This document shows, piece after piece, positions 18,703 to 59,784 of a DNA stretch of 64,000 nucleotides. The stretch's first letter is position 1. Every line of letters begins with the position of its first letter. The DNA is from Helicobacteraceae bacterium (GTDB lineage Bacteria; Campylobacterota; Campylobacteria; Campylobacterales; SZUA-545). Location: assembly GCA_031288475.1 (NCBI GenBank), contig JAITRJ010000045.1:8743-72742 (forward strand), written 5' to 3'. The notes below the pieces were generated by a model. The model searched no databases. It was given only the letters and a program-made list of their open reading frames with translations, and was not told the DNA's origin. The position numbers were made by a program, and so were the translations under genes.

Positions 18703-19101
18703 ATGCACGAAACCCTGAAGAGAACAAGCAAACCCAAGATCGGCAGCGAATAGGGATTTGGCATAACTTTCTTCGTTTTTTTTGCCGTTTTAGCGGCGTT
18801 TAATCCGCTAGAACTCCGTATCGCGTGGCTTACGGCGGCAATCTGTTTCGCAGCTTCGGCGCTTTTCCTTCCTGCCGCGCTGAAGCCGTTAAATTTTCTG
18901 TGGTTTTATTTCGGTCAGGCGTTGCATAAAGTGACTAATCCTGTTATTTTAGGCGTTCTGTTCTTTCTCGTAATTACTCCAATCGCTTTTTTGACGCGGC
19001 TTCTTGGCAAAAATATTCTTTCGCTTTCGTTTGATAAAAAACACGATAGCTACTGGATCAGGCGCGAAACCGGCGAAACGTCGATGAAACATCAATTCTA
19101 A
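18703..19101 (+). pseudogene. SxtJ-family membrane protein interrupted by in-frame TAG at codon 17
   Basis: Manual translation MHETLKRTSKPKIGSE*GFGITFF...LKPLNFLWFYFGQALHKVTNPVILGVLFFLVITPIAFLTRLLGKNIL...SYWIRR...SMKHQF. The frame is otherwise open for 132 codons; TAG at 18751-18753. Confidence 0.85.
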
Positions 19102-19110
19102 GGAGTAAAA

Positions 19111-19263
19111 GTGTCCTTTCTGTCAGAACTTTGGCTGTTTATGAAAACCAGAAAAAAATATTGGCTGGCGCCGATTATCATTATGATGGTTCTGCTTGGA
19201 GGGCTGATTGTTCTGTCATCAAGCGGTTCCGCGGCGGCGCCGTTTATATATACGCTGTTTTAA
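19111..19263 (+). CDS. Small membrane protein, SxtK/DUF5989 family (50 aa)
   Basis: AGGAG RBS and GTG start. Translation MSFLSELWLFMKTRKKYWLAPIIIMMVLLGGLIVLSSSGSAAAPFIYTLF. Confidence 0.9.
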   Translation: MSFLSELWLFMKTRKKYWLAPIIIMMVLLGGLIVLSSSGSAAAPFIYTLF

Positions 19264-19275
19264 GATACGGGTTTA

Positions 19276-20389
19276 ATGAAGAGAAAATTTATTTTCCCAG
19301 TTATATCCGTGTGTTTAGGCGCGCTGATCGCGCTGGTTATGCTAGAAATTTTCCTGCGGTTTTTCCCCGTCGGCGAATCGCTGTTTTTTCAAAGCGTGAA
19401 CGAAGAGAATCCCGTTTTCCGCGCCGAACCGGACAGAAGCGGCTGGTATTCCAAAAATTGGAATTTTAAACACGCGGCAAGATGGCGCAGCAATAACGAC
19501 GGGTTTATAAACGATCGGGATTATAAGACACCAATTGAGAGAGAAACGGAATCGACCGGGTTGATCGCGGTGATCGGGGATTCCTATGTAGAAGCGCTTA
19601 TTGTCCCTCCGCGGGAGAGTTTTTTTGAGCGTTTGGAGAAAGAAATGGAAGGGCGTCAGCTTGTTTACTCCTTCGGATTTAGCGGCGCGCCCCTCAGCCA
19701 GTATCTTATTTGGGCGCGATACGCGCAAGAAACCTATAAAAACGACTATCTGATCGTTCTTGTGATCGGCAACGATTTTGATGAAAGCCTGTTGGAGTAT
19801 AAAAGCGCCGAAGGAGGTCATTATTACGAAAAATCCGAAGGCGGCTTAAAGCTTAAACGCGTTGATTTTACTCCCTCGATAATGGGACGTGTCGCGCGTC
19901 GTTTTTTTATTTTTCAATATACAGCGCACAATATACAGCTTCTATTACCCCCCCCCCCCCCCCCCATCTTCCCCCGAAAGACAATACGCGGGTAACGCCG
20001 CATACGACGCTGACGAAAAGCGGATTAACGATTCAAAGGAAGCGGTCGATCAATTTCTGAAAGATATTCCGGTCTATTCTGGTCTGCCAAAGGATCGAAT
20101 TTTATTTATAGTAGATTGCGTCAGAGACGATAATTTTTACAGCGGTAATCCAGACCCGAACAGTTACGCGGCGCAGATGTTCGCGTATTTTTTGGAGAAT
20201 GCTGAATTAAACGGCTTTAACGCGATTGATATGCAAAAGTATTTTACAAACGACTACGCGATCAATAAACAGCGTTTTGAGTTTCCGGATGACGGACACT
20301 GGAATAGCGCAGGACACCGGGTTGCATATGAAGCTATTATGAATGAGAAAAACTTCGCAAACTACCTGAATAGCGTGGATCGCGAATGA
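19276..20389 (+). CDS. Membrane-anchored SGNH/GDSL acyltransferase-like protein, frameshifted at poly-C tract (phase-variable, OFF in this sequence)
   Basis: N-terminal TM helix, IGDSY (block I) and IGNDF (block III) in ORF 19276-19995; DGHWN (DxH) in ORF 19889-20389. Removing one C joins them into 370 aa. Confidence 0.85.
19948..19965 (+). repeat. Homopolymeric C18 tract (simple sequence repeat)
   Basis: 18 consecutive C at the frame junction of the SGNH gene. Confidence 0.95.
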
Positions 20390-22218
20390 AGATTCTGGGA
20401 ATATCAGCATTTTATCACGACAGCGCCGCCGCGCTGATTATCGACGGAGAGATCGCCGCTGCCGCTCAGGAGGAAAGATTTACAAGAATTAAACACGATC
20501 CCAGCTTCCCGAACAACGCTATTGAATGGATACTTTCCTCGCGGAAAATATCGTTAAGCGAGATCGATTTCGCGGTATTTTACGATAAGCCTTTTTTGAA
20601 ATTTGAACGTTTGCTGGAAACATACGTCGCTTTTGCGCCCAAAGGTTTCGTCTCTTTTCAAAAAGCGATGCCAATCTGGCTTGCGGAAAAACTATTTCAA
20701 AAAGACCTGCTTCGCAGACAGCTAGCTCGATTCGCGCCGGATTTCGATTGGCGGAATAAGCTGCTTTTCTGCGAGCATCATCTAAGCCATGCCGCCAGCG
20801 CTTTCTTTCCTTCCCCGTTTGAAAAAGCGGTTGCTTTGACGATGGACGGCGTAGGCGAATGGGCGACGACATCAATTGCGTTTGGAGATAAAAATACGCT
20901 GAGGATCGATCGGGAACTGCATTTTCCGCACTCTCTTGGTCTGCTATATTCCGCGCTGACATATTACGCGGGGTTCAAGGTCAATTCGGGCGAATATAAG
21001 ATCATGGGGCTTGCACCCTATGGAGAACCCAAATACGCGCAAGTAATTTTCGACAATCTGATCGATCTTAAAGACGACGGATCGTTCAGGCTGAATCAGT
21101 CATATTTCGACTATTGCACAGGGTTGAAAATGACAAATAAAAAGTTTGATGTCCTTTTTGGCGGCGCGGCGCGAAAGGCGGACGATCCGCTTACGCAGCG
21201 GGAAATGGATCTTGCCGCCTCGATTCAGGCGGTAACGGAAGAGATTATTTTACGCATAGTACGCTCCATAGCGAAAGAAACGGGGGAAGAAAACCTCTGC
21301 TTAGCCGGCGGCGTAGCGCTTAACTGCGTGGCAAACGGCAAACTCCTAAAGAAGGGATATTTCAAGCGGATGTGGATTCAGCCTGCGGCGGGGGATGCCG
21401 GCGGCGCGATCGGCGCAGCTTTAACGGCATATTACGTTCATCTGGGAAATCCCCGCGTCATCAACGACGGAGATTCGATGAAAGGCTCTTATCTCGGGCC
21501 ATCGTTCTCAGCCGACGAAGCGGCAAAACGGCTTACGAAGGTCGGAGCCGCATTTGAAACGCTTGACGAGGAGACTCTGTTAGACAGAGTGGTCTCCGCT
21601 CTGTGCGAAGGCAAGGCGATTGGTTGGTTTCAAGGCAGAATGGAGTTTGGACCGCGAGCTTTGGGCGCAAGGTCGATTATCGCCGATCCTCGTTCGATCA
21701 CAATGCAGAAAACCCTTAATCTAAAGATCAAATTCCGTGAAAGTTTCCGCCCGTTCGCTCCTTCGGTTTTAAGCGAAAAGGCAGGCGATTATTTCGAACT
21801 GGATGAAAAAAGTCCATATATGCTCCTGACAGCAGACGTACGTGAAAATTTGCGGCGCGCAATGAGCGAAGAAGAGCAGGCGCTGTTTGGAATTGATAAG
21901 CTGAACAGACCGCGATCCTCTATCTCCGCCGTTACGCACGTCGACTATTCGGCGCGCGTGCAAACCGTTCATAAAATGACAAACCCGCGCTATCACGCGC
22001 TTATAAGCCGCTTCGAGGCAAAAACCGGATGCGCAGTTTTGGTAAACACCTCGTTTAACGTGCGCGGAGAACCGATCGTATGTTCGCCCGAAGATGCGTT
22101 TAGATGTTTTATGGGAACCGGACTGGACGTTCTTGTCGTGGAAAACTGTTATATGGAAAAACCGTTTCAAAATCCTGCATTGAAACTTGATTATAAAAGC
22201 GCATTTGAACCGGATTAG
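20386..22218 (+). CDS. O-carbamoyltransferase, CmcH/NodU/TobZ (SxtI-like) family
   Basis: HDSAAAL, EERFTRIKH, EHHLSHA, DGVGE, GEYKIMGLAPYG, GGVALNC, EFGPRALG, RESFRPFAP and NTSFN. Confidence 0.95.
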   Translation: MKILGISAFYHDSAAALIIDGEIAAAAQEERFTRIKHDPSFPNNAIEWILSSRKISLSEIDFAVFYDKPFLKFERLLETYVAFAPKGFVSFQKAMPIWLAEKLFQKDLLRRQLARFAPDFDWRNKLLFCEHHLSHAASAFFPSPFEKAVALTMDGVGEWATTSIAFGDKNTLRIDRELHFPHSLGLLYSALTYYAGFKVNSGEYKIMGLAPYGEPKYAQVIFDNLIDLKDDGSFRLNQSYFDYCTGLKMTNKKFDVLFGGAARKADDPLTQREMDLAASIQAVTEEIILRIVRSIAKETGEENLCLAGGVALNCVANGKLLKKGYFKRMWIQPAAGDAGGAIGAALTAYYVHLGNPRVINDGDSMKGSYLGPSFSADEAAKRLTKVGAAFETLDEETLLDRVVSALCEGKAIGWFQGRMEFGPRALGARSIIADPRSITMQKTLNLKIKFRESFRPFAPSVLSEKAGDYFELDEKSPYMLLTADVRENLRRAMSEEEQALFGIDKLNRPRSSISAVTHVDYSARVQTVHKMTNPRYHALISRFEAKTGCAVLVNTSFNVRGEPIVCSPEDAFRCFMGTGLDVLVVENCYMEKPFQNPALKLDYKSAFEPD

Positions 22219-22279: not shown

Positions 22280-23434
22280 CTATTCGATGTGGAGGTGGTT
22301 GCCTTTCTGTATTTTGCAGATCTTCTTTATCCGCGCTGCGTCTAACGAAAAATCATCAAGATTTTTATACTCTTTGCGTCTGTTTATTGCCTCTGCTGCA
22401 GATAAACTTGCGATTGGAAAATTTTCGGTTACCCCATGCCTGTTTTTTGATACAATAAATCCATTTTTTACGTCTTCCTCATTATAGAGCGAAAGGATTC
22501 TCTGGCTGAAGGTTCCGATCACGCTCCTGCAATACTCCTCTCCGTCGTGATAATCGGTTATTACGACAAAATCGTCGCCTCCGATATGACCTATGAACTC
22601 ATTTTTCAGGGAGTTGGTTTTCAGAATATCTGAGAGTAACTTCAGCATCAGATCGCCGTTGACAAAGCCGTAAGCATCGTTATACGCCTTGAAATTATTT
22701 ATGTCGTAGTATGTTATACAGTACGGCTTTGTGTCGAATATCCATCGGAAAATTTCGCCTTCTATTAACAAGTTTCCTGATAGTCCGGTAAGTGGGTTTG
22801 AGTGTTTGGCGATCTCTATTTGAATTCTTGTTCTAGCATCCAGCAGATCTTTGACTGTTACCACGCCGAAATACTTGTTGTCTTTCTCAAGCACAATAGG
22901 ATTGCAGAGTCTCTTGTAAGGTCTCTGCATGGCGATTCGAGAAACGTCGTCGACATTTATGCTTTGATCCACCTTCAGAAAATCGGTTCGCATTAGTTCG
23001 CTTATGTACTTCCGTCGGCTTATAAAATGACCGTATATTTCGTCGAACGCCGCAAACAAATCTGTTTTTGTTAAATCATATTGGCTTATTTTCATCCACT
23101 ATATATATCTCTGTTACCGCCGGATTTGCTTTAGTCATCTCAAAAAGTGTCAATGCTTTTTCGTCTGGCGTGCATGTATAACCATTTTTGCTCAAAACCC
23201 CAATTCTTGGCTGAACGTAGTTTGTGATATTTTCAATGTAATATTTTGATTGAGTGGCGGCAATTATCTTTGTTTTTTTCAGGATCAATCTCGTCAAAGG
23301 ATTTCTTAGGGATCCCAATGAAAAAACCCTGCCCGAAATTAACGCCCAGTTTTATAAACGTGCGAAGTTCCTTTTCGATTCCAATTCCTTTCGCAATTAA
23401 ATTTATTTTCGTATTTCTGCAGAAAAAGAATTAG
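22280..23434 (-). pseudogene. Truncated, frameshifted EAL-CBS-GGDEF c-di-GMP protein (3' CBS-GGDEF portion 22280-23095 still open)
   Basis: EAL C-terminal remnant IAKGIGIEKELRTFIKLGVNFGQGFFIG near 23300-23400, then two frame changes, then CBS and NPLTGL...DINNFKAYNDAYG...HIGGDDF; AT-rich. Confidence 0.8.
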
Positions 23435-57126: not shown

Positions 57127-57750
57127 TCAGTCATCACACCAATGCGTATGGCCAGATTCGTTGTCTATGGCGATACAATGCGATTCGTTGTCCGCGCCTA
57201 ACGTTATGGTACATACGTCTTCCAGTCGACTGAAATTGACACCATTCCATACGTATGGTCTGCCCATCTCGTCAAACCCGATCATTCCAGCGCCTCCCGG
57301 TGGCGCGCCGCAGCTTCCGCCGAAAGTTAGGCTGCCGACATCCTGAGAAGAGAGTGCCATTTCATCCGTTATCTGATCGCCGCTTAAACCGGCGATACCC
57401 GCGAAACCGCCGCTTAACCGCCCGCTTGTCAGCGGATTTAAGGCGATATTGTCAATTGTGCCCGGCGTGTTAAAAGCGGCGGCAGAAGAATCGACTTTAA
57501 AAATCGTATAGCTTCTGTCGCCCGCGCTGTTGATATATATCCGCCAGCGTCTCCTCTGCCAATTTGCGTCGCCCGATCTGTATTGATCCTCCATCACCGC
57601 CAGATGCTGCGTGTATTTGATGTCTGTTATCAACCTGGTCGCCGCCGCCGCCAGCTTGTTATCAGAAAACATAGTCGTCGCGATCGCCGTCAGAATAGCG
57701 ACGATCACTATAACGGAGATCAGCTCTATAAATGTCATGGCTTTTCTCAT
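57127..57750 (-). CDS. Type IV minor pilin (FimT/MshC-like)
   Basis: MRKA|MTFIEL prepilin site; DIKYTQHLA and FDEMGRP. Confidence 0.75.
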   Translation of the reverse strand: MRKAMTFIELISVIVIVAILTAIATTMFSDNKLAAAATRLITDIKYTQHLAVMEDQYRSGDANWQRRRWRIYINSAGDRSYTIFKVDSSAAAFNTPGTIDNIALNPLTSGRLSGGFAGIAGLSGDQITDEMALSSQDVGSLTFGGSCGAPPGGAGMIGFDEMGRPYVWNGVNFSRLEDVCTITLGADNESHCIAIDNESGHTHWCDD

Positions 57751-58139
57751 GGGACTTGCACCGTCCTTCTGTTGTACCTAATCGGCATGTCTAGATTTGG
57801 CGCCTCGACAACGACGTCAACGATAGCCGTCCCGTTTATGTCGTCGCTGATGCCCGCTTCTGCGATAAAGCGTACCGTTATGTTTATAGCGAACGGATCA
57901 GCCTGAATTTCTGCGTTATGCGTGGACAAGCCTGCCCCTGTAGGCAAAATACTCCCCTCTGAAATTTTCAGTACCGTATATTCGGTTGCGCTGCGCGCCA
58001 GCAACTCCGCCTGCGTCCGTAGGAAAGCCTGACTCTTCTGCACCGATGTCGTGGCAGCTAGGGAAAGTATCGCTATCGCCAGCGCGGCTATGGCGACCAT
58101 CAGAAAAATCCCCGTTACAAGTGAAAATCCCCTTCTCAT
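57747..58139 (-). CDS. Type IV minor pilin, PilX/MshP-like (no Glu5)
   Basis: MRRG|FSLVTGIF hydrophobic helix and QAELLARSATE; start at 58139. Confidence 0.65.
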   Translation of the reverse strand: MRRGFSLVTGIFLMVAIAALAIAILSLAATTSVQKSQAFLRTQAELLARSATEYTVLKISEGSILPTGAGLSTHNAEIQADPFAINITVRFIAEAGISDDINGTAIVDVVVEAPNLDMPIRYNRRTVQVP

Positions 58140-59170
58140 AGCACAACCTTTTCGCGGCAGAACTGCATTTCGCGCCTTACGGCGGGGTCTTCGGCGCCGG
58201 CGATTATCTCGCTTGGAAGAACGCACAGCACCAGCCGCACAACGCTGCCCTGCTCCTTAAACAAAAAATTCGTAACGTCTCTGAGCATAACGGTTCTTTT
58301 GCCATCGGCATATCCTTCTCCAAGCCACGGGCGATAATCGTAATATAAAACCAGATCCCCGCTTTCGTCCGCCGGATCCGCTTTTTCAACTGTCAGAGCG
58401 TAGGCGCTCCGGACGATATAATAGTTTATCAAGCGTGCGGTGCCAGTCGCGGAAGAAGGCACCCTATCCCAAGTTCCCGAATAACCATATGACTCAAGCG
58501 TTATATTCCGATCGGTAGCAACCGGCTTGATACGAAAGTAGCTGTAGGTATCGCCGCTTTGCGACCAGCCCCAGCTGTTGTTCTGATCGCTGTAATAGTC
58601 GCCGCGCAGATCGTCGCCCGCAAAGACAAAAACTGAACAATCTCTGTCAGCAAGGCTGCTGTTGCTCCAGTCTGTGCATTGATCGATTCCGGCGCCGATC
58701 ATACTCGCGCCGATCATCTCGGATTCTGTAGTCCATGCCGTCGTCAGGTTGCTGCGCGGAAGATAAAATCCCTGATCGGAGATTTTGTACGCCGCGCCGC
58801 TCCAGCCCACGTTTCCGCCTGCATCGTTGGCGCGCTGCGATTCGTAGGATATGCCCACCCACTCAAGCATAGGGTAGGTGGTATCAATATTTTCGTGATT
58901 AAGCGGCAGTATGCTCGGCGGCGGCGCGCCTGCGCCCCCCGGCAGCCTGCGTCCGATCACGCTGTTTTTGATCCTGTACTGAAGCCGCGCCGCTATAATG
59001 TCCAGCGTCCGCCGCGTATCGTTCTGCCCCCGTTCAAAATCGCGGGAGAAGATGTACTGCTCGTAGACCCGCATAATCACATCCGCGCTCACCGTCCCCA
59101 CAATGGCGATAATCACCAGCGCGAATACAAGTTCAATCAGGGTGAAACCGCCTCTTTTTAATCTTCTCAT
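58136..59170 (-). CDS. Type IV minor pilin (PilW/MshO-like)
   Basis: MRRLKRGG|FTLIEL prepilin site. Confidence 0.75.
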   Translation of the reverse strand: MRRLKRGGFTLIELVFALVIIAIVGTVSADVIMRVYEQYIFSRDFERGQNDTRRTLDIIAARLQYRIKNSVIGRRLPGGAGAPPPSILPLNHENIDTTYPMLEWVGISYESQRANDAGGNVGWSGAAYKISDQGFYLPRSNLTTAWTTESEMIGASMIGAGIDQCTDWSNSSLADRDCSVFVFAGDDLRGDYYSDQNNSWGWSQSGDTYSYFRIKPVATDRNITLESYGYSGTWDRVPSSATGTARLINYYIVRSAYALTVEKADPADESGDLVLYYDYRPWLGEGYADGKRTVMLRDVTNFLFKEQGSVVRLVLCVLPSEIIAGAEDPAVRREMQFCREKVVL

Positions 59171-59784
59171 AGCGAGGCTCCTATATTAGACGCCACATAG
59201 TGCAGAACGCCAATTTCGTTTCCCGTCTGTCTATTTCTCGCGGTAATGGTAACAAGTATAAAGTTTGACCCGGTAACGCCGGCGGTCGCGCTCTGATCAA
59301 GCGTCCATACGGTCGTGATGACGCCGACGGGTGGTAGGAGTGTGTTGTCTGCAAGATAACCCACCTGAACATCCAGACGGAAACCTCTTTCCTCCATATC
59401 AAACCGAGCGCCGTTAAACTGATTTATCCCCGTCTGACTTTCCTCCCACGACAAACCATCCGGTGTAGTTGTTATATCGCATCGCCTGAATCTTTCCGGT
59501 CTAAGCAGGGCTGTGCCTTCGCGGACATTAGCGCTGTCCAACAAATAGGTGCAGTTTGCATTGATGGTAGAATGACCAACAATGCTGTCCTTGACCTTAT
59601 TGTTATACTGGAGAGACACGATGCGGTTCATAAGCGCCGAGGCGTGATAGAGAGCCTCCCCCTCCAGCGCGTCTTCCTCCACCTCTACTACTGTGCTCAT
59701 TAAAATCGGAAGAGTCCCGAAGATCAGCCCCAGCAGAACTACCGTCACGATCGTCTCGATCATGCTGAAAGCGTTTTTTCTCAT
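59167..59784 (-). CDS. Type IV minor pilin (PilV/MshD-like)
   Basis: MRKNA|FSMIET prepilin site; C-terminal ASNIG. Confidence 0.72.
   Translation of the reverse strand: MRKNAFSMIETIVTVVLLGLIFGTLPILMSTVVEVEEDALEGEALYHASALMNRIVSLQYNNKVKDSIVGHSTINANCTYLLDSANVREGTALLRPERFRRCDITTTPDGLSWEESQTGINQFNGARFDMEERGFRLDVQVGYLADNTLLPPVGVITTVWTLDQSATAGVTGSNFILVTITARNRQTGNEIGVLHYVASNIGASL

Follow-up and report, generated by a model that had tools for sequence, protein, structure and literature searches.

A cassette of four genes occupies positions 18,703 to 22,218 of a 64,000-nucleotide stretch of DNA (the window) from a Helicobacteraceae bacterium (GenBank assembly GCA_031288475.1, contig JAITRJ010000045.1). 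It encodes an sxtJ-like membrane protein (J), a short DUF5989/SxtK-like peptide (K), an SGNH protein (S), and a carbamoyltransferase (CT), and it may represent a system, found in many phyla, that relays a carbamoyl group through a C-terminal tyrosine. The genes follow the order J-K-S-CT, all co-directional, between pyrH and a GGDEF gene, with gaps of 9 and 12 nucleotides (nt) and then a 4-nt overlap; pyrH (TIGR02075) is transcribed divergently. The window is contig C14 of its own genome (G000), whose assembly of 1.25 Mb is 71% complete. The features of the locus, with lengths of proteins in amino acids (aa), are as follows.

18703..19101, + strand: J, gene for an sxtJ-like membrane protein; 132 codons with an in-frame TAG at codon 17; PF19588
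18751..18753, + strand: premature TAG in J, codon 17, at the Arg of the S-x-R-x-F-G motif of relatives
19111..19263, + strand: K, DUF5989/SxtK-like peptide, 50 aa, intact; codon of Tyr47 at 19249-19251
19276..19947, + strand: 5′ half of the SGNH gene (S), with a signal anchor, block I GDS (Ser103, 19582-19584), block II Gly, and block III GND
19948..19965, + strand: C18 homopolymeric run within a variable S loop, a frameshift between the Ser and the His
19966..20389, + strand: 3′ half of S, read in the +1 frame and carrying block V DDGH (His codon 20297-20299); its stop codon shares a 4-nt overlap with the CT start
20386..22218, + strand: CT, O-carbamoyltransferase of the CmcH/NodU/TobZ type, 610 aa, intact, with His11, His131, His135, Asp154, Asp337, and GPRALG

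In Pfam, J matches PF19588 with E 1e-6 (29.8 bits vs. a cut-off of 24.4), K matches PF19451 with E 2e-24, and CT matches Carbam_trans_N/C (PF02543, PF16861) far over the cut-off, with E 2e-107 and 2e-73. The matches of the two S halves are weak (AlgX, E 8e-5; GDSL_2, E 0.05), and the frame of the 5′ half reaches a stop at 19995. K begins with an amphipathic stretch, followed by RKK, some 18 hydrophobic residues, and a 14-residue hydrophobic tail ending in FIYTLF, a layout that predicts an outward-facing C-terminus. A same-genus genome (G001, locus L008) carries J-K-S-CT with all four genes intact; its J is 50% identical to the copy in the window, and its 373-aa SGNH protein is 51% and 46% identical to the two S halves. 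The original prediction, made from the sequence alone, had described four packed co-directional genes divergent from pyrH, a 50-aa transmembrane peptide with the end FIYTLF, and a CmcH/NodU carbamoyltransferase. Spacings and families agree with this description: K is an intact DUF5989 peptide with its Tyr at position 47, and CT has both Pfam domains and retains its catalytic residues. The list of four proteins was correct as to families, but the frames of J and S are not open, being interrupted by the TAG and the C18 run, respectively; the catalytic Ser and DxH residues named for the SGNH protein are both encoded, but in different frames (Ser103 vs. DDGH). The prediction also held that the window is free of MBOAT and polyketide synthase/nonribosomal peptide synthetase (PKS/NRPS) genes, and none turned up among 38 further window open reading frames (ORFs) searched with Pfam at E ≤ 1e-14 or among the remaining ones, which were scanned separately or only read. 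MBOAT was not found in the 71%-complete G000 either. A scan for promoters and terminators gave results at chance level.

The linkage of the four genes was surveyed with own profiles within 3.5 kb of CT, using the best 80 of at least 598 CT matches in GTDB, which come from many phyla. These CT-seeded loci contain J in 74, K in 72, and S in 52 cases out of 80. Such a neighbourhood survey had been asked for in the original prediction, which named a lack of SGNH co-occurrence among the results that would speak against it. Among the 56 loci with flanks of at least 3 kb, J is present in 55, K in 52, an SGNH gene in 40, and MBOAT in 2, so that SGNH genes do occur beside the trio of J, K, and CT. Metagenome loci seeded with K (79, mostly short) have J in 76, CT in 73, and S in 24 cases; where flanks are available, the figures are 18/18 for J, 18/18 for CT, and 8/18 for SGNH. 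MBOATs were seen in 2/80 CT-seeded and 1/79 K-seeded loci, and all three have an FIYFxF tail of their own; the MBOATs of G001 lie on other contigs than its cassette. Loci L043, L085, and L152 carry MBOAT-SGNH acetylation modules beside the carbamoyl cassette, and in L043 a divergent second K with the end FLYALF stands ahead of three SGNH genes and MBOAT. Additional K copies directly adjoin SGNH genes in L043, L047, L102, and L161. Records of K include one plasmid and no phage. The K profile has 5931 matches among 1.84 billion representatives, a total that is no family count because the top 150 include many apparent extensions that arose by miscalling or frameshift.

Conservation of the terminal Tyr had been set as a test of the original prediction. 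In the CT-seeded loci, 76 of 77 K-like ORFs have the Tyr at the fourth position from the end in an FxYxxF-type tail; the 77 are what is left of 80 profile matches after three long overlapping-frame ORFs were dropped, and the sole exception is another overlapping-frame ORF. The invariance of the Tyr in alignment A2 and in the K-seeded loci is circular, since these rows were selected by the motif, and was not used as evidence. The same tail is found in natural single-chain proteins. Among CT homologues longer than 1068 aa (best 120 of 494), 117 have an SGNH domain, and 116 show the domain order SGNH-CT-helical domain-tail. In every one of these 116 fusions the fourth residue from the C-terminus is an invariant Tyr, mostly within S(V/I)YVMF, although no motif filter was applied. 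None of the 116 has an N-terminal hydrophobic segment vs. 119/120 close homologues of the SGNH protein of G001. An AlphaFold2 model of one fusion, P0004, is a compact unit with a predicted template modelling score (pTM) of 0.91, in which the tail is of low confidence (predicted local distance difference test, pLDDT, 62-66). Another protein, P0009, combines CT and SGNH with the latter half of J and ends like K, in SPLIYALF, while P0001 and P0003 are carbamoyltransferase-methyltransferase-SxtJ fusions, whose arrangement places the predicted J N-terminus on the carbamoyltransferase side. The natural fusions tie SGNH, carbamoyltransferase, and Tyr tail together. Because 116 of them are without any transmembrane helix, the putative relay is not intrinsically trans-membrane, and its proposed chemistry needs no membrane. 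Stand-alone soluble J- or K-like proteins gave 7 matches only, apparently pieces of fusions, and an Atlas search returned only DUF1800 clusters at 0.89-0.90, which is chance level.

CT looks like a fully equipped enzyme of the TobZ, GdmN, NovN, and VtdB class, sharing with it both domains (Kae1-like and YrdC-like), the catalytic His, and four metal ligands. H11, H131, H135, D154, and D337 are invariant in 67/67 CT sequences and align to H27, H133, H137, D156, and D333 of GdmN; matches in the PDB reach E 1e-95 to 1e-76. What sets CT apart from this class is an obligate-looking linkage to J and K and a subfamily patch at residues 64-103, which is conserved above the whole protein (0.82 vs. 0.73), aligns to the acceptor-pocket helix of GdmN, is partly common to the fusions, and is absent from the four stand-alone CTs checked. 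Mean column identity across phyla amounts to 68% for CT, 66% for K, 38% for J, and 20% for a subset of 20 SGNH neighbours. Because CT and K are conserved while the SGNH neighbours are diverse, we infer that CT may have one fixed acceptor, K, and that the variable S would pick the final acceptor.

The SGNH protein has blocks I, II, III, and V of its family. In an alignment of 134 sequences S96 and H343 are invariant, and G130, N159, and D341 are conserved at 90% or more. The model of the G001 protein has an SGNH fold (pTM 0.92), and its closest solved fold is crocagin CgnD (Z 18.7, root-mean-square deviation 3.5, 238 aligned), ahead of a runner-up at Z 14.7 and PatB at 13.6; Foldseek also agrees on CgnD. 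By sequence, the cassette-SGNH profile A6 has CgnD as the first of 69 PDB matches (E 1e-18), and the matches of profile A5, many of them plain esterases, include AlgJ, AlgX, and PatB1 over a stretch of about 100 residues. DltD, AlgJ, and AlgX are outside the top 50 fold rows, which excludes nothing. Of the SGNH neighbours that could be parsed, 50/59 have one or three N-terminal hydrophobic segments, and this odd number suggests a periplasmic SGNH domain.

We propose, with a probability of roughly 55%, that the cassette relays carbamoyl groups through the Tyr tail of K to an extracytoplasmic acceptor without an MBOAT. CT would form carbamoyl-AMP from carbamoyl phosphate and ATP, as in the chemistry of the TobZ/GdmN family, and would load the carbamoyl group on the C-terminal Tyr of K. 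J may act as a scaffold and keep K in contact with CT. To be loaded, K might extend its 14-residue hydrophobic tail back through a groove lined by J, which is the weakest step. The Tyr would then pass the carbamoyl group to the SGNH Ser, by analogy with the chemistry of DltX/DltD and PatA/PatB, and the SGNH protein, predicted to be periplasmic, would carbamoylate an envelope molecule, probably a surface glycan.

A close functional parallel is offered by the Dlt and Pat systems, for which PMC12148441 describes an FXYXXF acyl shuttle in DltX and PatA. The cassette resembles DltX/DltB/DltD and PatA/PatB in having a membrane microprotein with a basic N-side, one hydrophobic helix, and a terminal FXYXXF, together with an SGNH partner carrying Ser-His-Asp (same source). 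According to that paper, other pathways are without a DltX-like microprotein. The cassette differs from Dlt and Pat in that there is no MBOAT, the donor would be carbamoyl-AMP from a soluble enzyme, and soluble single-chain versions exist. It is proposed to work like these systems but not to be a member of them, since it has no MBOAT. The tyrosine shuttles known so far rely on a multi-pass membrane acyltransferase. Of the carbamoyl analogue of Dlt advanced in the original prediction, the conserved Tyr, the SGNH genes being commoner than MBOAT, and the fusions speak in favour, while passage across the membrane as an intrinsic property has to be given up.

A second precedent is found in saxitoxin clusters, where sxtI, sxtJ, sxtK, and the GDSL gene sxtL have consecutive accessions in the available text of PMC2684587 and PMC2679770, with a carbamoyltransferase of 1839 bp, sxtJ of 405 bp, sxtK of 165 bp, and sxtL of about 1280 bp. 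Compared by gene type and size, all four match the window cassette. DUF5989 is what we take to be SxtK. The SGNH partner is thus not new to the trio, as sxtL already adjoins sxtI, sxtJ, and sxtK, a counterpart overlooked in the original prediction. The window cassette departs from the saxitoxin clusters in its order J-K-S-CT, in being broken, in lying among housekeeping genes, and in having no core genes around it: no saxitoxin core gene such as the PKS-like sxtA was seen among the window ORFs, the search being confined to the window. The portions available of PMC2684587, PMC2679770, and a 2025 review (PMC12300590) have SxtI acting with SxtJ and SxtK and give no mechanism, in line with the earlier remark that SxtJ and SxtK have none assigned; the accessible text of a 2026 preprint (10.64898/2026.06.11.731795) adds nothing mechanistic on the gene set. 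For L. wollei, the available part of PMC3037375 describes a truncated sxtI, the absence of sxtL, and a lack of carbamoylated products, and makes no mention of sxtJ or sxtK; these losses fit either role of SxtL. The crocagin cluster likewise pairs a carbamoyltransferase, CgnI, with the SGNH protein CgnD, which among solved structures is most closely related to the cassette SGNH family, and has a CgnK of unknown function (PMC10070186). Four sister clusters without a carbamoyltransferase list no CgnD-type hydrolase in supplementary table 5 of that paper, within its accessible portion. Crocagin differs from the cassette in its soluble proteins, its small-peptide acceptor, and the publication of CgnD as a slow protease. 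Our literature search found no report joining a carbamoyltransferase to a Tyr shuttle and none of the fusions or tracts; earlier cluster papers could discuss part of this.

Homopolymer tracts bear on the nature of the trait. Of 400 genomes sampled from the phylum, 13 have a K above the Pfam cut-off: 12 belong to family f26, called Helicobacter-like in this analysis from gene content, and one to family f10. CT is present in 10/12 f26 loci, and each of these ten has one or two SGNH genes; of the other two, one contig ends before CT and one locus, L239, keeps J and K only. A run of G9-G14 lies about 55-60 codons into CT in 9/9 f26 loci that have the CT start, and all nine are out of frame; these loci are kin and not independent. 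The tenth CT-bearing locus has a long run at its contig end, and the f10 locus has neither a run nor an SGNH gene. Outside Campylobacterota a cassette run occurs in 1/80 loci, a G9 at L049:1570 that splits the carbamoyltransferase of an alphaproteobacterial metagenome-assembled genome. The poly-G runs suggest a phase-variable surface trait, and the cassette in Campylobacterota is likely phase-variable. The C18 run in S is a likely switch of this kind, which, if under selection, means that S is needed for the trait. Because the run sits in S here and in CT in f26, the switch likely arose twice. The carbamoyltransferases of f26 loci L234, L236, L238, L241, L242, and L244 are enlarged by insertions, with frames of up to about 900 codons.

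The copy in the window is probably inactive as assembled, owing to the C-run frameshift and the stop in J. We see an even chance that this genome has the remains of a decaying cassette, in which the C run does not work as a switch; this would be compatible with any mechanism. There are two independent breaks, the G000 assembly holds no second copy of J, the intact SGNH gene of G001 has no long run, and the locus L239 shows that a remnant of J and K alone exists. On the other hand, nonsynonymous divergence (dN) is far below synonymous divergence (dS) for all four genes between the window and G001, and, as the G001 cassette is also intact, any damage would be recent. The 1.25 Mb of the genome contain 12 G/C runs of at least 12 nt vs. 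about 0.1 expected from base-frequency arithmetic. Short J proteins consisting of the C-terminal half occur naturally in L011 and L089, and a TTG at 18922 could start such a short J, though its ribosome site looks poor. Recoding of the TAG was ruled out, as TAG terminates 176/730 long ORFs of the genome. The only sequencing run that holds the window, X1, a termite gut metagenome, is a possible source of the assembly and hence not independent; its contig has no alternative letter at 18751-18753, and its contigs break at the C18 run, none of them bridging it. Next to none of the window is present in runs X2 and X3, and no RNA run is listed with the window.

Several observations weigh against the proposed relay. 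The positive-inside topology would put the tail of K on the side opposite to CT, and no channel is evident. The SGNH gene is not adjacent in 16/56 CT-seeded and 10/18 K-seeded flanked trios, and the neighbours read at 25 S-less loci are mostly housekeeping genes. When the genomes of 8 S-less trios were searched, 6 had longer family-like SGNH genes elsewhere, one of these matches being weak, and the other 2 gave only weak or short generic matches; such genome-wide presence is weak evidence because profile A6 matches short generic SGNH proteins in 10/61 relatives and misses G000 at 1e-8. Moreover, 47/106 neighbouring SGNH ORFs failed the strict GDS + DxxH parse or were truncated. The homology of the C-terminal domain of the fusions to J and K is weak: the helical domain compared with the C-terminal half of J scores 19.7 (maximum of 30 shuffles 14.6, P 0.008-0.012), and its comparison with K is not significant (P 0.11). 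Within the available parts of the papers, SxtL has been proposed to be a decarbamoylase (PMC2679770), and CgnD is a slow protease in vitro, for which the same paper reports no detectable substrate binding (PMC10070186). TobZ-class enzymes normally transfer directly to the final acceptor (PMC9633730), and all solved CT homologues do so. The last point, together with the common trios without an adjacent SGNH gene and the reviews in which SxtI is a partner of SxtJ and SxtK and a decarbamoylase role is given to SxtL, is what recommends a simpler scheme, in which CT acts directly on a lipid-linked glycan or small molecule at the cytoplasmic face. J and K would then only anchor CT or activate it, the Tyr would have a structural role, and the SGNH protein would be a hydrolase with an optional editing function. 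This scheme seems unlikely to us, as it leaves unexplained why the terminal Tyr is invariant in soluble fusions that have no anchor, why a hydrolase should be fused to a transferase, and why a conserved CT pocket stands beside highly diverse SGNH partners. Decarbamoyl toxins of L. wollei also arise without sxtL, though sxtI is dead there as well (PMC3037375, in the portion available).

Alternatively, the Tyr relay may serve a small exported metabolite, or stay entirely on one side of the membrane, K being re-entrant, and involve no envelope polymer. The soluble fusions without membrane helices are in keeping with this, as are the position of the SGNH domain of P0009 on the CT side and the products of both characterised CT + SGNH clusters, saxitoxin and crocagin. 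Glycan genes are not clearly enriched either, which also tells against a surface acceptor: they were found near 16/56 loci vs. 10/51 own-genome windows, in a comparison whose queries were drawn from the loci themselves. Yet no biosynthetic cluster lies in the window, the odd N-terminal segments of the SGNH neighbours suggest a periplasmic domain, and 6/13 Campylobacterota loci are near glycosyltransferase or sugar genes, some with G runs of their own. Frameshifting tracts in host-associated lineages are, in general, typical of surface traits. We hold a relay of this restricted kind to be quite improbable. If the acceptor is extracytoplasmic, the favoured candidate in this lineage is a surface glycan; elsewhere the precedent is small molecules. 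An envelope polymer, the kind of acceptor named in the original prediction, is suggested by the phase-variation tracts and the predicted topology, and not by gene neighbours.

In a broader form, the proposal would be a general carbamoyl-tyrosine relay that exists as a soluble and as a four-gene membrane version, a 50-residue peptide carrying the group across the membrane in the latter; we put this forward tentatively, at somewhat less than even odds. If it is true, SxtL and CgnD would be terminal carbamoyl transferases and not hydrolases, and gut Campylobacterota would have a phase-variable carbamoylated surface. If a soluble adenylating enzyme loads the relay, an activated group would have one more route across the inner membrane in many phyla. 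SxtJ, SxtK, and DUF5989, which have gone without an explanation ever since the description of the saxitoxin cluster, gain a role open to testing from the relay reading, and the assignments of SxtL and CgnD are called into question. With the soluble fusions, one purified protein would be enough to test the relay chemistry. The tracts suggest that gut Campylobacterota possess a surface modification that can be switched and has not been reported.

Some further features were noted in passing. In G001, directly upstream of J (L008:9621-10046), there is another SGNH gene that is truncated, has internal deletions, and contains a G8 run. In the window, three ORFs at 57130-59784 (− strand) have type IV pilin-like N-terminal motifs by eye, with no Pfam match at the strict cut-off, and the CBS-GGDEF gene downstream of the cassette (22280-23318, − strand) appears as two ORFs of 271 and 80 aa with a low GC of 0.41, and may be split or truncated. 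Elsewhere in G000, an acyltransferase-3 ORF and an SGNH ORF at C3:1105-3016 (L170) are split at a G8 run (2209-2216), which likely represents a second phase-variable, OatA-like O-acetyltransferase. Other long G/C runs of G000, at C15:10468, C37:3650, C37:15308-15325, C45:24810, and C56:29962, lie, as judged by eye, in or before apparent lipoprotein, pilin, sugar-synthesis, and outer-membrane protein genes.

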